The translations under genes were made by a program, and so were the position numbers. Under the pieces are notes generated by a model that was not told the DNA's origin, did not search any database, and worked only from the letters and a program-made list of their open reading frames with translations. A DNA stretch of 63,885 nucleotides, the filler included, from Malassezia furfur (taxonomy: Eukaryota), in assembly GCA_052055015.1 (NCBI GenBank). It is 3 parts of 3 records of this genome, joined end to end, with 100 filler letters (N's around TTAATTAATTAA, not from the genome) between each part and the next. Parts side by side here need not be neighbours in the genome. Positions count along the whole stretch, not along the records: positions 44,994 to 63,885 come from JBQJIT010000198.1; 2 more parts are not named here. One strand, written 5' to 3'. Shown one piece after another: positions 2,370-54,377 of the stretch; within the stretch, counting starts at the first letter, position 1, and each line of letters opens with the position of its first letter.

Positions 2370-5300
2370 CTACACCAAATACGCATTCAGGCCGTACGCA
2401 GCGATCTTGTCCGGCGCCTGCGTGTTCAGCTGCGAGAGGAAGGCGACGAGCTGCCCGCGCAGCTTGCCGCCCAGCATGTCCTCCTCGGCGCCGAGCACGT
2501 GCTGGAAGAGCTGCAGGATGGTATCGAGGTAGTGCAGGCCGTGCGCGTTGTTCGTCTGGATCAGCTGCACCAGGCACAGCAGCACCGGCGTCCACTCCGC
2601 GTAGTCGTTGTCCAGCGGCAGCGACGAGAAGAGGATCGGCAGCGCCTGGTCGAGCGGCACCGCCTCGGGCTTCTTCATGATCATGCGCGCGAGGCACCCG
2701 CACGCATTGTCGCGCGCCGTCTTGACGTCGTCCGACTCGCCCTCGCTCTTCGCAAAGAAGGGCTGCAGCGCGGTGAGCAGCGACGTGTAGTGCTCCGACA
2801 GATCCACCTCGCTGTTCTCGATCAGCACGCCGGCGGCAAACGCCGAGTTGGAGCGCACCGATGCCTCCTCGTCCATGAGCGAGCGCGAGAGGATCGCGAG
2901 GATGTCCTGCGTGAAGGGCGTGATGGCGCCCTTCATCCCGGCAATGATCTCGCCCAGCGAGCCGACCGCCGTCGCGCGGTCGCTCTGCGAGCGGCCCGGC
3001 GAGTAGTACTTGGCGATCTGCGGGAGGAACTGGCGCAGCGGGCCGGCAAAGTCGCTGCCGAGCACGTTGGCCATCGCGCCCACGAGGTCGGTCGCGGCGC
3101 TGATGAGCACCGACTCGTACTCGCTCGCCTCCTCCGACTCTTCGTCGTCGACCGCCTCGGGGTCCACCTGCGGCGGCGCCTTCTTCTCGAGGATCAGGTG
3201 CGTGTTGGCGCACGTCGCCTCGAGCCAGTCGGGCGCAATGATCGCCGGGCCGCACTTGTTCAGGCACGCGGCGAGCGACTGGCAGATCTCGATCGCGGCG
3301 GTGCGGTCGTCCTCGGCCTCCCACGCCTCCATGATGTTGGGGATGATGAGGTCCACGACGTTCTTCACGTCGGCGTTGAGCGGCACCTTGACCGCCACGC
3401 CCGGCACCCACGCCGGCGGGTTGCTCAGGTCGTACAGCGTGTTGATAAAGGTGAAGAGCGTCGCGATCGCGCTCTTGCGGATGCCCTGGTAGAAGTGCGA
3501 GGTGAGCGGGATGAGCTCCTCGGTCGCGGGCTGCACGAACGGCAGGAAGGCCGAGCGCGTGTGCTGGAAGAGCTCGCCGAGCGAGTCGGCGGCCACCTCC
3601 TTTTCCACGGCGACCGCCGTGGACACGTTGAGGAAGGCGTCGTTGAGCTCCTCGAGGTCCACAAAGTCGTCGTCGCCGTCGTCGTCGCCGGGCACACCCA
3701 TGCCGGTGATCACGCCGTTGCCCGCCGCGCCGGGCACCGCGTCGTGCTCCGACTGCTGGAAGGAGGCGAGCATCTTGGGCACGACGTGCTCCAGGTACGG
3801 CCCAAACTCGTCGCCAAACACGCGCGACATCACCGCAAAGAAGATGAAGGCGCACTCGCGGATGCGCGGCTGGTCCATCGCCAGGCTCTCGACGGTGAGC
3901 TTCATCATGTCGGGCAGGTAGGGGCGGAAGAGGTCCTTGCCGACCGCCTCGGCAAACGTGCCCACCGTGTCGGTGGCGATGCCGCGCAGGTCCATCTCCT
4001 CGCCCTCCTCGGTGAGGTGCAGGAAGGGCTGCACGCGCTGCATCATCGGCTCAAAGTACGGCACAAAGCCGGCCTTGGCCGCGTGCGCCGCACTGCCGAT
4101 CGCGCCCGTGATGGTCGCCTTGACCGCGACGGGCGCCGTGTCGAGCAGGCCCGTGAGGCGCTCCATGATCGCGGGCAGGTACTGGCCGATGTCGTTGCCC
4201 ATCACCTCGAGCAGCGCATCGAGCGCCGTGCACGCCGCACGCTGCGTCTCGGGCGCGTTGATCAGCTCCATGATCAGCGGCAAGAAGGTCGCATGCTTCG
4301 CGGCGCACTCCTCGTCGAGCATCTCGCACAGGCAGCCGAGCGTGATGCACGACGCCTTGCGCACCACCGGCTCGGGGTCGCGCATGCCGTTCTCCACAAA
4401 CGGCCACAGCTCGTCCATGTGCGGGCGGATGTACTCGGAGCAGCCCTCGACACTCACGCCAAACGCCATCATGGCCGCCTTGCGGTGCATCGGGTCGGCG
4501 TTCGCCGCGTACGCCTGGATCTGCTCCAGCAGCGGCGGGAACACGTGGCTCGGCGGCAGCTCGGTGGCGAGCTGGTCAATCACCCGCAGCGCAAGGCGCG
4601 CCGGCGTGTCCTCCTCGATGTCGTCCGACTCCTCCTCCGTGGCGATCGGCATGAGCTGCTCGAGCATCGGGCGCGCGAGGCCGAGGCTCTGCACGCGCGA
4701 GCGCTTGTACTGGATCGTCCACACGAGCGAGTTGAGGCACATCAGGCGCAGCTCCTCCTCGTGCTCACGGTTCGCGCTGTTCCGCACAAAGAAGGCAATC
4801 AGCTCCGCGAGGTGCGTCGTGAGCACGGGCGTCTCGAGCATGCACAGGTTCTCAAACACGTCAAGGATCTGGCGCACGCCCTCGTTGTGCGACGCGTCAA
4901 GGCACTGCTGCAGAATCTCGACCATCTGCGGCACGGCGCTCTGCATCGCCGCCAGATCCGCCTGGTCGTCCGCCTCGAGGTTCTCGGCGACCTTGCCGAG
5001 CGCACGCACCGTGGTGATGCGCACCTCGATCGACTCGGGGTCCTGCAGGCTCTTGGCGAACAGCGCCATGATGCGCGGCAGCTGCGACTTGAGCGCATCG
5101 CCGCCGTCCACAAACGTCTCGAGCACAATGAACAGCACCAGCATCGCCGCCTGGCGCTGCGCGGCGCTCGGCGACTCGGCAGACTCAAACAGCCACGGGA
5201 GCAGCGCCGGCCACGCATTGTGCGGCAGCTCCTTGCGCGCAATCTCGGCAATGACGCGCGCCATACCGTTGCGCAGAAGGTGGCTCTCCTCCTGCGCGAT

Positions 5301-49834: not shown

Positions 49835-50013
49835 AATCGCTTCTTGAGATGCGTCTGTACACACGCGCGGAATGCGGCAAACTCGGCCTCACACACGCCA
49901 CGCTCGATCTGTTGGTAGTGCGCAAGCATGCACTGGCCGTACTGCTCCGCCTGCGCGCTGCACGCGCCCATCGCCACGCCCCACTTGCGCAGCGGCGCGA
50001 GGTGCCGGGGCAT
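49831..50013 (-). CDS. NDUFAF8-like twin-Cys complex I assembly factor
   Basis: 60 aa, CSAQAEQYGQCM...I.RGVCEAEFAAFRACV (twin CX9C pattern). Confidence 0.78.
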   Translation of the reverse strand: MPRHLAPLRKWGVAMGACSAQAEQYGQCMLAHYQQIERGVCEAEFAAFRACVQTHLKKRF

Positions 50014-50051
50014 CGTGCGTAGAAGTCACGTGCCTCACGCACACCACCGCC

Positions 50052-51365
50052 ATGTTCCAAGCGGTGTATGCGGCGGTGGTCGCCGCCGCGTCGCGGCTGA
50101 CCCTGTCGATGTCGCCGCGCGAAAACCTGCGCAAGCTGCGTGAATACCACATGGGACGTGCCGAGCGGCTCAAGTATGGATTCATGGCCGTCATCGCGCT
50201 GTTTGCCGTGACGGTGATCCGCGAACCGCCCATGCCGTACAAGCTGCTGCCGCCCATCCTGTACGCACTCGCGCTACTCTTCCCCATCTCGTCGCAGTTC
50301 ATTCTGCCTGCGTCACCTATTCTCCTCTGGCTCCTGCTGTTCTACTCGTGTCGCTTCATTCCGGCCAGCACGCGGCCTCACATCTGGGTGTCGGTGCTGC
50401 CGACGCTCGAGACGATCTGGTACGGCGCCAACATCAGCGACATCCTCACGCGCTTCGGGCACCCAGCGCTCGATATCCTCGCCTGGATCCCGTACGGCGT
50501 CGTGCACTTTGTCGCACCGTTCGTCGTGGCCGCGTTCATCTTTGTGTACGCGCCGGTGGGCAGCGTCAAGTGGTTCGCCAACGTGTTTGGCTTCACCAAC
50601 CTCATTGGCGTCTTGACCCAGATCGCGTTCCCCTGCGCGCCGCCGTGGTACGAGCTGCGCGAAGGCCTCACGCCCGCCAACTACGGCATGCGTGGCTCGC
50701 CAGCCGGCCTGGCGCGGATCGACGCGCTCTTCAAGGGGCACGGCTACACACTCACCTTTACGGGCGCGCCCATGGTGTTCGGCGCGTTCCCGTCGCTGCA
50801 CGCGGCGTGCGCGACGGTCGAGTCGCTCTTTTTGTCCTACTTCTTCCCGGGCAAGATCCATGTCGGGCGCTTCGCGATCGACAAGCGCGTGTTCTACTGG
50901 GGATACAGCTTCTGGCTGTACTGGTGCACCATGTACCTCATGCACCACTACCTCATTGACCTCGTCGCCGGCGGGTGCCTGGCCACCATGTGCTTCTACG
51001 TGTTCCGCACCGAGTCGGTGCGCAATGCCATGGAGCAGCGTCTTGCGGCCATGGAGCGCGCCGAGGGCCACGAGCCCGAGACGGTCGCCCTTGATCGCAT
51101 GGGCCATGCGCACCTCGTCTCCCACCCGGCGCGGCCACACGACGAGGAGGAAAAGGCGGCGTCCCAACGGCCCACCATCTTCACGCTCGACGAGAGCGAC
51201 GACACGCCGGGGCCGGACCTCGCACGAACACGCTCGCCCAACTTCCTTGCCGCAGACACGGCCGTTGCATCCCAATCGGGCCGCGCCGGGACCGGCCACG
51301 CCATCTCCCGCCCGGCCAGCAGCGCGTCGAACCGCGCGGGCAGCAGTAGCGCCGTAGCTGACTAA
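50052..51365 (+). CDS. AUR1: Inositol phosphorylceramide synthase (aureobasidin A target)
   Basis: RPHIWVSVLPTLETIWYGANISDIL, LAWIPYGVVHF, FPCAPPWY, GLARID, FGAFPSLH, MYLMHHYLIDL. Confidence 0.95.
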   Translation: MFQAVYAAVVAAASRLTLSMSPRENLRKLREYHMGRAERLKYGFMAVIALFAVTVIREPPMPYKLLPPILYALALLFPISSQFILPASPILLWLLLFYSCRFIPASTRPHIWVSVLPTLETIWYGANISDILTRFGHPALDILAWIPYGVVHFVAPFVVAAFIFVYAPVGSVKWFANVFGFTNLIGVLTQIAFPCAPPWYELREGLTPANYGMRGSPAGLARIDALFKGHGYTLTFTGAPMVFGAFPSLHAACATVESLFLSYFFPGKIHVGRFAIDKRVFYWGYSFWLYWCTMYLMHHYLIDLVAGGCLATMCFYVFRTESVRNAMEQRLAAMERAEGHEPETVALDRMGHAHLVSHPARPHDEEEKAASQRPTIFTLDESDDTPGPDLARTRSPNFLAADTAVASQSGRAGTGHAISRPASSASNRAGSSSAVAD

Positions 51366-51398
51366 GCCCACCCCGCCGGGCGCGTCTCCACGTCGCCC

Positions 51399-52494
51399 AT
51401 GTCGTTTGCAGGCAAGCTCGTGAAGATCACGCTGCGCAGCGGCGAGTCTTACCCGGCGAGAATCGTACATGTGGATCCAACGAGCGCAACACTGACCGTC
51501 GAGCGCTCCGACACAAACACCACCGAGCATGTCCGCCGCGACGCCCTCCAGGACGTAAGCATCGTCAGCGAAGGTTCTGCGGCGGCTGCAACCGCCGCTG
51601 CGCAGGCGCCTGCTATGGCAGCTGCAGCACCAGCGGCCACCGGGACGCCGCCTACCACGGAAAAGAAAAAGCGTAACAAGGCGAAAAAGGCGCCTGCGTC
51701 GGGCCCGACGCCAGCGTCGGCGTCGACACCGGCGTCGGCACCGGCGCCGCCCGCGCATCCCTACCTGGAAGAGTTTGACTATACCAAGAGCACACAGAGC
51801 TTTGACAAGAAGAAAGCGTGGGAAGAGATTCGTGTATGTGCCCCATGCCCCTGCGGCTGACCTTTAGCAAAGCCAGGCGGGTCGTTCGTCCGACCCCCTC
51901 TTGGTTCAGCTTAACCGGCGGCCTGCGACCGAGTCGCGGCAGCCGATGCTTGCGCCGAACGAGATGGTTCTCAGTCCGAGCGAGATTGAGCAGGCACGCG
52001 CAGCTGGCCAACTCGAAAGTGCCATGCCACCGCCGCCCAACGATCGCAATAGCGCGGACGCAGCGACTGCGGCGCTGTCGGCGGCCGAGACGGAGCTGTC
52101 GTCGCTCCGTTCACAGCTGAAGCACGCGCGCAAGCGCCAGGCGCTGCTGGAGGCACTGACCGGCGTCCAGGTCGCCGACACGCCCGCCGGTGACGAGTAC
52201 GTCTGCTCGCTGTTTGCCGAACCGCGCATTGCAGCGGCACACTGGCGTGCCAAGTACGTCGCGCCTGCGTCCCTTGACGATACCAAGGCGCTGCGCTACC
52301 GCATGTGCATTCCCGACCTCGACATGCTCGACAAAAACGACCCTGTGATGCTGTCGTACCTGGGTCCGGCCGGCGAGACGGATCCAGAACTGGTGCAACG
52401 GCTTCCAGAGCACTTCCGGGGGCAGGTGAGCGTCAAGGCGGAGAATGCACCGCTGTTTGCGCAGCGCCTGCAGTCCATTGCGCATGGCCCGTAG
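51399..52494 (+). CDS. Edc3-like decapping activator (LSm plus FDF) with an atypical Csm1/Pcs1-like C-terminal domain
   Basis: LSm MSFAGKLVKITLRSG..TLTV; FDF-like EEFDYTKSTQSFDKKKAWEEIR|..LLVQLNR..PNEMVL across intron 51834-51867; no YjeF_N motifs seen. Confidence 0.65.
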
Positions 52495-52496
52495 AT

Positions 52497-53189
52497 CTAC
52501 AAAAACTGCAGAGCGTTGTGCAGCCACTGGGGGCGCGGGTATATCCGTGCAACGACGCGGCCCTTGACCAGCGCGAGCGGCACCGGGCCATAGTGCCGGC
52601 TGTCGGTGCTATTCGCGAGGTTGTCGCCGGCGAGCCAGACGTGGCCCTTGGGGATCGTGACAATGCGTGTCGCATGGTGCAGCCCTTGTGGGCCTTCGAG
52701 CATGCGCGCAAGCTCGTGGTGCGCGGCCGCTGCATCCGTCAGCCCACTCGCCACGTCGCGCGGGTCCACGAGAATCGTGTCGCCGCCCATGCCGAGGATC
52801 CGCTTGCATACCGTGCGCGATGGGTCGGTGGGCGACGTCGCGACGACCATGTCACCAATTTTCAGCCCCTGCCCCATGCTTGGGTCCGTCTTGGCACACG
52901 GCAGCCCCTTAGGCACGGGCGGGAAGCGCTCTTTGAGCTCGGCATCGGCGAACGGCAGCTCAGAGAGGAGGCGCAAGAACGGCAGGCGGAGGTGCACCAC
53001 CAGATCGCCGGACGGCGACAGCGTGGGCAGCATGGACGCGCCTTTGCACTGGGTGAGCGTACGGCGACATACCACGCGCACTTCAAAGATGTGTTGGTTC
53101 ACGAGGTGCACGGTGCACATCATCTGCACCGTGAACACGCTGAGACGCGTCGCCTGGCGCGTCCATTGGCTTGCCTTTGCCCAGGCCAT
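52497..53189 (-). CDS. IMP1: Mitochondrial inner membrane peptidase subunit 1
   Basis: GASMLPTL, VCKRILGMGGD, IPKGHVWLAGDNLANSTDSRHYGPVPLALVKG; in-frame 24-nt intron near 53049-53072. Confidence 0.9.
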   Translation of the reverse strand: MAWAKASQWTRQATRLSVFTVQMMCTVHLVNQHIFEVRVVCRRTLTQCKGASMLPTLSPSGDLVVHLRLPFLRLLSELPFADAELKERFPPVPKGLPCAKTDPSMGQGLKIGDMVVATSPTDPSRTVCKRILGMGGDTILVDPRDVASGLTDAAAAHHELARMLEGPQGLHHATRIVTIPKGHVWLAGDNLANSTDSRHYGPVPLALVKGRVVARIYPRPQWLHNALQFL

Positions 53190-53349
53190 GGCGGCAGCCA
53201 GCGCGTGCTTATTTCCCCACAGCGGAAGTACCGTGCGCGGATCCGGAACGCGGCTCACTTTGCCGCCGAGGGGAACGTCATCAGCCGGGCGCGAAAGAAG
53301 TCGTTTGCACAGAGGGACTCCGATCGCAGTACGATAGCTTCGATACGGC

Positions 53350-54377
53350 ATGACATCACAAGCAGGCCGAAGCTCGCATATGAATGCGCAGGCCCGCGAC
53401 TCTGCGATCGCCGGCGCGAGCGCAGGGCTCGTATCGAGCGTGGTGACGTGTCCCCTCGATGTCATCAAAACGCGTCTCCAGGTCATGGCCGAGCCGGGGA
53501 CCAAGTCGGGAATCTACCGAGTCGGGCGTACGTGTGGCACACTCTCACCCAGACCTCATTAGCCGGATCTGGCACGACGACGGCTTGCGTGGCTATTATC
53601 GTGGCCTGGTGCCCACCATGGTCGGTTACTTGCCAACCTGGGCCATCTACTTTGTGGTCTACGACAAGGGCAAGACATTCTTTTCGTCGCAGCTCGGTAC
53701 GTCGCGCAGGCGCGCTCATACAGGCGAAGGGCGCAAACACGATTTTTTGATCCACATATGCAGCGCCATGACGGCGGGTGTCGTTAGCACGACCTGTACC
53801 AGCCCTTTTTGGGTGGTCAAGACACGGACGATGGTACGTACGCACCGCTTACGCAGCTCCAAACCTCAAAGCAGCCATCCGACCAACGATATAACAACAT
53901 CCTTGATGCGTTCCGCAAAATCTACTTGCGCGAGGGGATCGGCGGCTTTTACAAGGGTCTACTACCGAGCCTCCTGGGCGTATTCCACGTCGTGGTCCAG
54001 TTTCCCCTGTACGAGTACTTCAAAAGCTTGGCTGGTACGTCGTCGCTTGCTCACCTTCAGCCACTCGGCAGCACTCCGACCATCTTTCGCCTACGATGAT
54101 TCTGCTATGCAGTGGCGGCTCGAAAATGCTCGCTTCCATGGCTACATACCCCCACGAGGTGCTGCGCACACGTCTGCAGATGGTCCCCCAGACGGGGCAC
54201 ACTCACTATACCGGCCTCTTCCAGACGATTTCGGTCATCTTCCAGCGAGAGGGCATCCGCGGCTTCTACAAGGGCATGGGCGTGAACCTGATTCGCACCG
54301 TTCCCAACTCAGGGCTTACGCTGCTCACCTACGAGGTGATCATGGGTCGCCTGGAAGCCATGCGCCGACCTCCATAG
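53350..54377 (+). CDS. Mitochondrial carrier, NAD+ transporter (Ndt1/Yia6-like)
   Basis: Three PxD/ExxK/R motifs (CPLDVIKTRLQ, SPFWVVKTR, YPHEVLRTRLQ), GYLPTWAIYF.VYD, HVVVQFPLYE; four short introns. Confidence 0.85.

Follow-up and report, generated by a model that had tools for sequence, protein, structure and literature searches.

The gene at the locus and its neighbours

The subject of this analysis is one gene within a 63,885-nucleotide (nt) stretch of DNA from Malassezia furfur (assembly GCA_052055015.1), hereafter the window, to which all positions refer. By our reading of the sequence, the gene spans 51399-52494 on the plus strand and consists of two exons encoding 353 amino acids (aa). 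Exon 1 (51399-51833, plus strand) contributes 145 codons from an ATG at 51399 and encodes an LSm domain, a low-complexity linker of Ala, Pro, Ser and Lys, and an FDF motif (FDY in this protein). A phase-0 intron of 34 nt (51834-51867, plus strand; GTATGT...CTGAC...TAG) separates it from exon 2 (51868-52494, plus strand), whose 208 codons extend to 52491 and are closed by a TAG stop at 52492-52494. Retention of the intron would add 9 codons before a stop at 51861-51863 (open reading frame, ORF, 51366-51860). The encoded protein joins an N-terminal half of the type found in the decapping factor Edc3 to a C-terminal half predicted to form a coiled coil and a Csm1-like RWD head.

Start site and splice junction were both supported by annotated orthologues. 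The N-terminus of the window protein, MSFAGKLVKITL, aligned with the annotated start of the M. psittaci (P0007, 357 aa) and M. yamatoensis (P0009, 354 aa) proteins. The junction, ...KKKAWEEIR/QSQAGRSSDPLLVQLNR (the stroke marks the splice point), agreed with these same NCBI-annotated spliced proteins, which read ...KKKAWEEIRQSQAGQS.DPLLVQLNR across it. The nearest named organism was M. furfur itself, represented by P0004 (94% identical over 182 aa).

Relatives also informed the history of the intron. The ORF calls of P0011, P0015, P0026, P0020 and P0023 pass from ...EIR into V... at the intron site; the phase-0 position is therefore conserved, as far as can be inferred from protein calls. P0010, P0013, P0014, P0016, P0175 and a metagenomic locus, L003, have a contiguous ORF from which the intron is absent (seen in DNA for L003 and from protein calls for the others). 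The presence of the intron at the same place in distant relatives and its absence from others suggests repeated intron loss.

Existing database entries divide the gene in two. The NCBI M. furfur model GLX27_003445 (P0004) comprises 182 aa and begins at an internal Met (MLAPNEMVL; window 51946-52494), so that all of exon 1 and 26 codons at the start of exon 2 are missing, and is likely a mis-annotation. P0003 similarly covers 182 aa from the first Met of exon 2, and P0020 (151 aa), a product of intron-blind ORF calling, continues exon 1 into the intron (...WEEIRVRRARAPVD). These split products are artefacts.

To place the gene in its family, we searched 1.84 billion representatives exhaustively with a HMMER profile, which returned 114 hits at E ≤ 1e-3. 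Hits were classed with two local hidden Markov models plus Pfam results. An N-half signal together with the C-terminal module was found in 28 of the 114 (23 full-length from the LSm start and 5 fragments), and 7 short sequences contained the C-module only. A further 37 hits combined the N-half with YjeF_N. The N-half alone accounted for 28 short fragments and for 14 long proteins with neither YjeF_N nor the C-module, two of which were Tudor-repeat cross-hits. YjeF_N and the C-module occurred together in none of the 114 hits. Conservation of the whole arrangement in 23 full-length relatives is more than would be expected by chance.

The Tudor-repeat cross-hits, P0024 (2180 aa) and P0071 (1299 aa), matched the LSm part of the profile in 7-12 stretches (E 5e-26 and 3e-7). 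They were not counted as relatives, the matches presumably reflecting similarity between SH3-like barrel folds.

A scan of metagenome contigs with P0010 as the query yielded three loci. At one of these, the Malassezia-like L003 on a 283-kb contig, both halves lie in one uninterrupted ORF of 342 aa (2995-4023). This ORF is flanked by the same neighbours as the window gene, a PAP2-type gene upstream and a convergent Peptidase_S26 gene downstream. One could nevertheless propose that an LSm-FDF gene of ~150 aa is followed at this locus by a distinct gene of 182 aa whose start is the internal Met, with their fusion being an artefact of reading. This would fit the 182-aa NCBI model starting at MLAPNEMVL and the occurrence of P0020 and P0003 as distinct ORF products in protein collections. 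However, P0020 is merely exon 1 run on into the intron, and the 182-aa model would drop the conserved in-frame LLVxxNR motif located upstream of its Met. The intron bears canonical GT, CTGAC and AG signals and its removal preserves the frame. Both halves reside in one protein in 23 relatives, and in one uninterrupted ORF with the same synteny in L003. We consider the two-gene explanation extremely improbable; by sequence, both halves belong to one gene.

The gene neighbourhood is very tightly packed, with synteny conserved between the window and L003. In the window, 33 nt separate the ATG from the end of a PAP2_3-family gene (49848-51365, plus strand), and the stop of a convergent Peptidase_S26 gene (52497-53513, minus strand) lies 2 nt past that of the gene described here. 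We take the PAP2_3-family neighbour to be possibly related to inositol phosphorylceramide (IPC) synthase/AUR1. The corresponding L003 neighbours lie at 1560-2960 and 3962-4561, and the convergent ORFs overlap there by ~60 nt.

The Edc3-type N-terminal half and the distribution of the architecture

To compare the N-terminal half with solved structures, we built a family profile from 16 sequences (A2) and ran it against the sequences of all PDB chains. Profile A2 identified a divergent LSm domain of the Edc3 type at 51399-51569 (plus strand, about residues 1-57). Its matches included the Edc3 LSm domains of S. pombe (4a53, E 4.6e-11; 4a54, E 6.3e-7) and S. cerevisiae (6y3z, E 0.0095), the FDF peptide of human EDC3 (2wax, E 6.6e-4), and K. 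lactis Edc3 (5lop, E 0.093). Window exon 1 by itself matched Pfam LSM14 at just E 0.026. The domain is followed by the Ala/Pro/Ser/Lys-rich linker (51570-51767, plus strand), which carries a basic KKKRNKAKK patch and varies in length and sequence among relatives.

Downstream of the linker lies the FDF motif block, EEFDYTKSTQSFDKKKAWEEIR (51768-51833, plus strand), a putative Dhh1-binding element recognized through the match of profile A2 to 2wax and through Pfam FDF in the family. At E ≤ 1, 22 of the 37 family members carried a match to Pfam FDF (PF09532), the strongest with E 5.7e-10, and several exceeded the 26.1-bit cut-off. The FDY block of the window protein aligned column for column with the FDF of other members. 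FDY (window 51774-51782) is common to the group of M. furfur, M. psittaci, M. yamatoensis and M. vespertilionis (P0007, P0009, P0012), and FDF was present in all other members seen. The post-FDF motifs LLVQLNR...MLAPNEMVLSP (51898-51978, plus strand) constitute the last stretch homologous to canonical Edc3.

The end of this homology was defined by aligning the family with two FDF+YjeF_N proteins, P0056 (Rhodotorula toruloides, Pucciniomycotina) and P0037 (Phycomyces). Invariant columns common to the family and both proteins were found in the LSm domain, FDF...FDK...I, L..NR and E.VL, and then none. The FDF block shared invariant F, D, F, K and I columns with YjeF_N-type Edc3, and the post-FDF stretch shared invariant L, N, R, E, V and L columns with P0056 and P0037. 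As the invariant columns end after E.VL, the homology breakpoint lies right after ExVLSP, near window position 51978.

Kinship with Edc3 was also evident from the exhaustive search, in which the 37 FDF/LSm proteins with YjeF_N were reached via the N-half, and the Tilletia horrida member is named 'enhancer of mRNA decapping' by NCBI. An Scd6/LSM14 identity was ruled out by the Edc3 LSm matches in the PDB and by the presence in full-length kin of YjeF_N, not FFD/TFG/RGG. On these sequence comparisons, the N-terminal half is Edc3-type.

The LSm-FDF-YjeF_N plan of Edc3 is usually described as conserved across eukaryotes. Compared with Edc3/Lsm16 of S. cerevisiae, S. pombe and human (EDC3), the Malassezia-type protein has the same divergent N-terminal LSm domain and order of parts, the same FDF motif followed by FDKxxxWxEI, and the same post-FDF LLVxxNR and xLxxxExVLSP motifs. 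Canonical Edc3 ends in a self-associating C-terminal module, and self-association of the tail is predicted for the Malassezia-type protein. They differ in that the canonical tail is a Rossmann-like YjeF_N domain, whereas the Malassezia-type tail is a coiled coil with an RWD head, and in length (353 aa in the window versus about 437-843 aa for the YjeF_N forms). The FDY variant of the M. furfur, M. psittaci and M. yamatoensis group is a further difference. For S. cerevisiae Edc3, one report (PMC2064791) describes an LSm domain that binds Dcp2, an FDF that binds Dhh1, and a self-interacting YjeF_N domain needed for processing-body (P-body) aggregation and dispensable for decay enhancement. The same report states that the domain organization of Edc3 is conserved.

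All named carriers of the LSm-FDF-coil-RWD plan were Ustilaginomycotina in the lineages checked. They included M. furfur, M. psittaci, M. yamatoensis and M. vespertilionis; Tilletia horrida, T. maclaganii, T. indica and T. walkeri; Tilletiaria anomala, found by a search with region 120-329 of P0019; Ceraceosorus guamensis and C. bombacis; and Microstromatales, with the species Sympodiomycopsis kandeliae, Jaminaea rosea and Pseudomicrostroma glucosiphilum. Several are labelled merely 'DFDF domain-containing protein' in UniRef. Rhodotorula and Phycomyces retain the YjeF_N form of Edc3, and YjeF_N was in none of the exhaustive-search hits stronger than E 1.2e-11. From these sequences, the architecture is lineage-wide and not a Malassezia-specific chimera.

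A third Edc3-like architecture was observed in P0057 (846 aa), P0068 (758 aa) and P0053 (676 aa). These proteins possess LSm, FDF, LLVSHNR, KLRPNEMV.SP and a coil ending in LLEELAGLGL, with no RWD head. Beyond the coil, a long linker leads to ~250 C-terminal aa that include a HELLHALYF (HExxH-like) motif and gave no Pfam match at E ≤ 0.5. This tail may reflect a further exchange of the C-terminus or the fusion of an adjacent gene.

An earlier note on this DNA, made from the sequence alone, anticipated much of this. Its single gene with a canonical, frame-keeping 34-nt intron is upheld by the junction in annotated orthologues and the uninterrupted L003 ORF. The LSm-like N-terminus found its counterpart in the Edc3 LSm of 4a53, and the FDF-like block followed by LVxxNR...EMVL is present, as FDY in the window. 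Separate transcription of the halves, which the note had entertained, is contradicted by L003 and the full-length relatives. The survey it proposed of other Malassezia and Ustilaginomycotina revealed the same architecture in every named relative carrying the module. The idea of an Edc3-Csm1-like chimera thus survives in that both halves form one gene, but not as a one-off.

Predicted fold and pairing of the C-terminal half

After a helix, the tail of exon 2 reads LLEALTGVQV...LPEHFRGQVSVKAENAPLFAQRL. Pfam YjeF_N (PF03853) was matched by none of the 37 family members at E ≤ 1. This result, together with a predicted fold that is not Rossmann-like, ruled out a degenerate YjeF_N domain as the C-terminus.

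The structure of exon 2 was predicted with AlphaFold2. A first model, from 8 sequences, had a mean predicted local distance difference test (pLDDT) score of 71. With 37 sequences, the mean pLDDT rose to 86, with values of 91-97 from residue 70 to 208. This model comprises a long helix (exon-2 residues 60-98; 52045-52161, plus strand; pLDDT 87-97), predicted to pair as a parallel coiled-coil dimer, and a Csm1-like RWD-type alpha/beta head (residues 99-208; 52162-52491, plus strand; pLDDT 91-97) with the element order b-b-a-b-b-a-b-a.

Foldseek searches of the PDB with the 37-sequence model gave Csm1 from S. cerevisiae or C. glabrata in all 15 of the rows listed through rank 19. These had probabilities of 0.99-1.00, compared to 0.13 for the next listed row (rank 29). 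The best was Csm1 3n4s_B (E 5.6e-4, probability 1.00, target template-modelling (TM) score 0.70, root-mean-square deviation (rmsd) 3.1). The first, 8-sequence model resulted in the same ranking. Independently of Foldseek, both models were also compared with 48,161 representative chains using VIA-align. Csm1 again scored highest (3n4x_A, Z 8.8, rmsd 3.9, 123 aligned with the coil included; 5v1a_A, Z 8.6, rmsd 3.0, 91 of 98 aligned). It was followed by a KMN-network chain (Z 6.9), the Mad1 C-terminal domain (Z 6.5), Med17 (Z 6.2), Spc24/25 (Z 5.8) and Knl1 RWD (Z 5.1). The Csm1-like fold is persuasive because two aligners and two models placed Csm1 first and other kinetochore RWD proteins next. 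The C-terminal half, as modelled, folds as a coil and a Csm1-like RWD head. ESM Atlas matches for this half (0.82-0.84, phage or archaeal clusters) fell under the tool's lead level and were discarded.

Sequence comparisons gave fainter signals. The commonest Pfam family on the C-half was Csm1 (PF12539), matched by 4 of 37 members at E ≤ 1 and collinear over profile positions 6-80 of 84. Spc24 and HR1 were each matched by 2 of 37. A C-half profile searched against PDB sequences matched Fes through the coiled coil (E 0.0026). A phmmer search with exon 2 alone returned a single marginal and unrelated match (5uif, E 0.097).

Comparison with solved Csm1/Pcs1 structures (3n4x, 3n4s, 5ktb, 5v1a and 6mjb) revealed shared and distinct features. 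In both, a helix leads directly into an alpha/beta RWD-like head (predicted here), and the two-copy model of the window protein suggests a parallel homodimer via the coil and first strands. The window module differs in having ~14% sequence identity to Csm1/Pcs1, and in its position at the C-terminus of an mRNA-decay protein, whereas Csm1 stands alone. The Mad1 C-terminal domain (4dzo), Spc24/Spc25 (3vza/2ftx), Knl1 (4nf9) and CENP-P/Ctf19 likewise feature a dimeric coil that ends in an RWD head. These had structural scores below Csm1 in every search, and adopt heterodimeric or tandem-RWD arrangements in their own complexes.

Pairing was modelled by two-copy prediction of exon-2 residues 58-208, run without the alignment. 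The model scored 0.49 (runs 0.59, 0.46 and 0.49), compared to 0.08 for the best control, with pLDDT 47-52. This score passes a mark that, among proteins of solved structure, 21 of 30 pairs of one chain attained and none of 23 single chains (17 of 29 and 0 of 30, respectively, among eukaryotes). At least 65% of contacts agreed among runs, with a partner pLDDT of at least 47. Modelled contacts were in register along helix 62-98 (70:70 to 98:98) and extended to strands 100-113, the pattern expected of a Csm1-like parallel dimer. The modelling thus lends support to a parallel coiled-coil homodimer as the probable arrangement.

Probable replacement of YjeF_N and its possible consequences

Our data suggest that the gene is probably the Ustilaginomycotina Edc3 (enhancer of mRNA decapping 3, Lsm16), with YjeF_N swapped for a coil and a Csm1-like RWD head. 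Replacement of YjeF_N is favoured over a plain gene fusion because homology stops at ExVLSP and because the two C-termini never co-occur in the 114 hits. The earlier note had offered replacement as one of two alternatives, and its short coiled coil corresponds to the modelled helix 60-98. Its proposal of a Csm1/RWD-like tail is upheld structurally, by both aligners and both models, but its sequence counterpart falls short of the Pfam Csm1 cut-off. It had also considered a tail lacking any RWD/Csm1 match or consisting of a degenerate YjeF_N; instead, Csm1 was the top match and YjeF_N was absent.

By analogy with yeast Edc3, the LSm domain would bind the decapping enzyme Dcp2 and the FDF motif would bind the DEAD-box helicase Dhh1. 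Following ExVLSP, the ancestral self-interacting YjeF_N is missing, and a predicted helix of ~40 residues and RWD-type head of ~110 residues stand in its place. Two copies of the helix are predicted to pair as a parallel coiled coil, bringing two heads into proximity in the manner of Csm1, and this dimer could supply the bivalency that YjeF_N gives elsewhere. With two LSm and two FDF arms, each dimer could cross-bridge two Dcp2/Dhh1-bound messenger ribonucleoproteins (mRNPs) in decapping activation and P-body scaffolding. The P-body role and partner binding are inferred from this analogy.

Several results weigh against this reading. Pfam FDF had no match on window exon 1, where the motif reads FDY. 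No family member reached the Pfam Csm1 cut-off of 22.6 bits (best P0043, 19.6 bits, E 0.0013), and window exon 2 had no Pfam Csm1 match at E ≤ 10. Among PDB sequences, neither the whole-protein profile nor the C-half profile found a Csm1 chain at E ≤ 10, and the sole RWD protein from the C-half profile was CENP-P (E 0.15). Foldseek E-values were no better than 5.6e-4. The absolute VIA score is modest, since models without a clear match typically have a best Z of 7-8. The dimer prediction was made without the alignment and has a low pLDDT (47-52), and its score may reflect likeness rather than binding because Csm1 dimers are among solved structures. Finally, Malassezia may have a second, YjeF_N-bearing Edc3 paralogue. 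By sequence, membership of the tail in the Csm1 family is not established.

The sequence results leave room for a tail that is a kinetochore-type coil and RWD module without Csm1 descent, being of the CENP-P/Ctf19, Spc24/25 or Mad1 type or convergent, with the same role as the Edc3 dimerizer. The CENP-P match, which runs through the coil-to-strand junction motif (LLEALTG-type), would be consistent with such an origin, as would the absence of Csm1 from the PDB sequence searches and the Pfam Spc24 matches in 2 of 37 members. Mad1, Spc24/25 and Knl1 fall within about 2-4 Z units of Csm1, and no canonical Csm1 appeared among the 114 exhaustive-search hits. Set against this, Csm1 ranked above every other RWD protein with both aligners and both models, Foldseek probabilities were 0.99-1.00 for Csm1 rows versus 0.85 for the best other RWD chain, and the commonest Pfam family on the C-half was the collinear Csm1 match described above. 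We regard a non-Csm1 origin as a credible, if rather unlikely, alternative, and favour descent of the module from Csm1 over descent from another kinetochore-type RWD protein.

The other alternative concerns function. If the protein were a working chimera, its head would keep monopolin-type client binding and physically couple decapping factors to kinetochores or ribosomal DNA (rDNA), or the protein would act there and not in P-bodies. Dsn1 or Tof2-like motifs would occupy the hydrophobic cavity, and Ulp2 or Mam1-like motifs the side sites. Csm1 is indeed the closest solved structure for the coil and head together, and the surface-candidate residues P180, A194, F197 and R200 are invariant in 37 sequences. 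A preprint (bioRxiv 10.1101/456798) describes Csm1 heads as general-purpose crosslinkers that bind peptides, each dimer offering four interaction surfaces. Among the Csm1 features it describes are a conserved hydrophobic cavity that binds Dsn1/Tof2, the binding of Lrs4/Mde4 at the coil, and localization to kinetochores or the nucleolus. Yet every conserved motif of the N-half is a P-body one. Another report (PMC11481519) lists M. sympodialis MSYG_1748 as a 'Csm1 domain-containing protein', 'Upregulated' in a Rim-pathway transcriptional comparison. If MSYG_1748 is a separate gene and not the orthologue of the one described here, then Malassezia keeps a canonical Csm1 alongside, which would cover the canonical role. 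A chimera working in chromosome biology is accordingly improbable in our view. A related scenario, which we also rate as unlikely, is that the Csm1-derived head keeps monopolin-style cavities. Ustilaginomycotina Edc3 would then be a V- or clamp-like crosslinker that recruits further short-motif clients to decapping mRNPs or tethers Dcp2/Dhh1 to kinetochore, rDNA or SUMO-pathway proteins.

Full-text literature searches found no account of an Edc3 bearing a Csm1/RWD tail. No publication in these searches joined Edc3 and Malassezia, and the sole match for Edc3 with Csm1 was an unrelated yeast screen. Searches for Edc3/Basidiomycota/YjeF and Edc3/Ustilago gave nothing on an LSm-FDF-coil-RWD architecture. 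As far as these literature searches show, a kinetochore-type Csm1-like module is not known to be used outside chromosome biology. Searches for Csm1/monopolin/Basidiomycota, and the available portions of PMC12362390 and bioRxiv 10.1101/456798, mentioned no basidiomycete Edc3-Csm1 protein.

This work corrects the M. furfur gene model, annotated as a 182-aa fragment, and supplies a name for 'DFDF domain-containing' and 'hypothetical' proteins of Malassezia, Tilletia and their relatives. Were the unlikely clamp-like crosslinker to be true, it would link mRNA decay physically and directly to chromosome biology, and would be the first RWD clamp to serve in P-body assembly. If the preferred reading of a YjeF_N swap is correct, then the subphylum-wide exchange of YjeF_N for an unrelated coiled-coil/RWD dimer would amount to a natural experiment. 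It would indicate that the selected role of the Edc3 YjeF_N domain is self-association, through which mRNPs are cross-bridged, and not small-molecule binding or another YjeF_N-specific activity.

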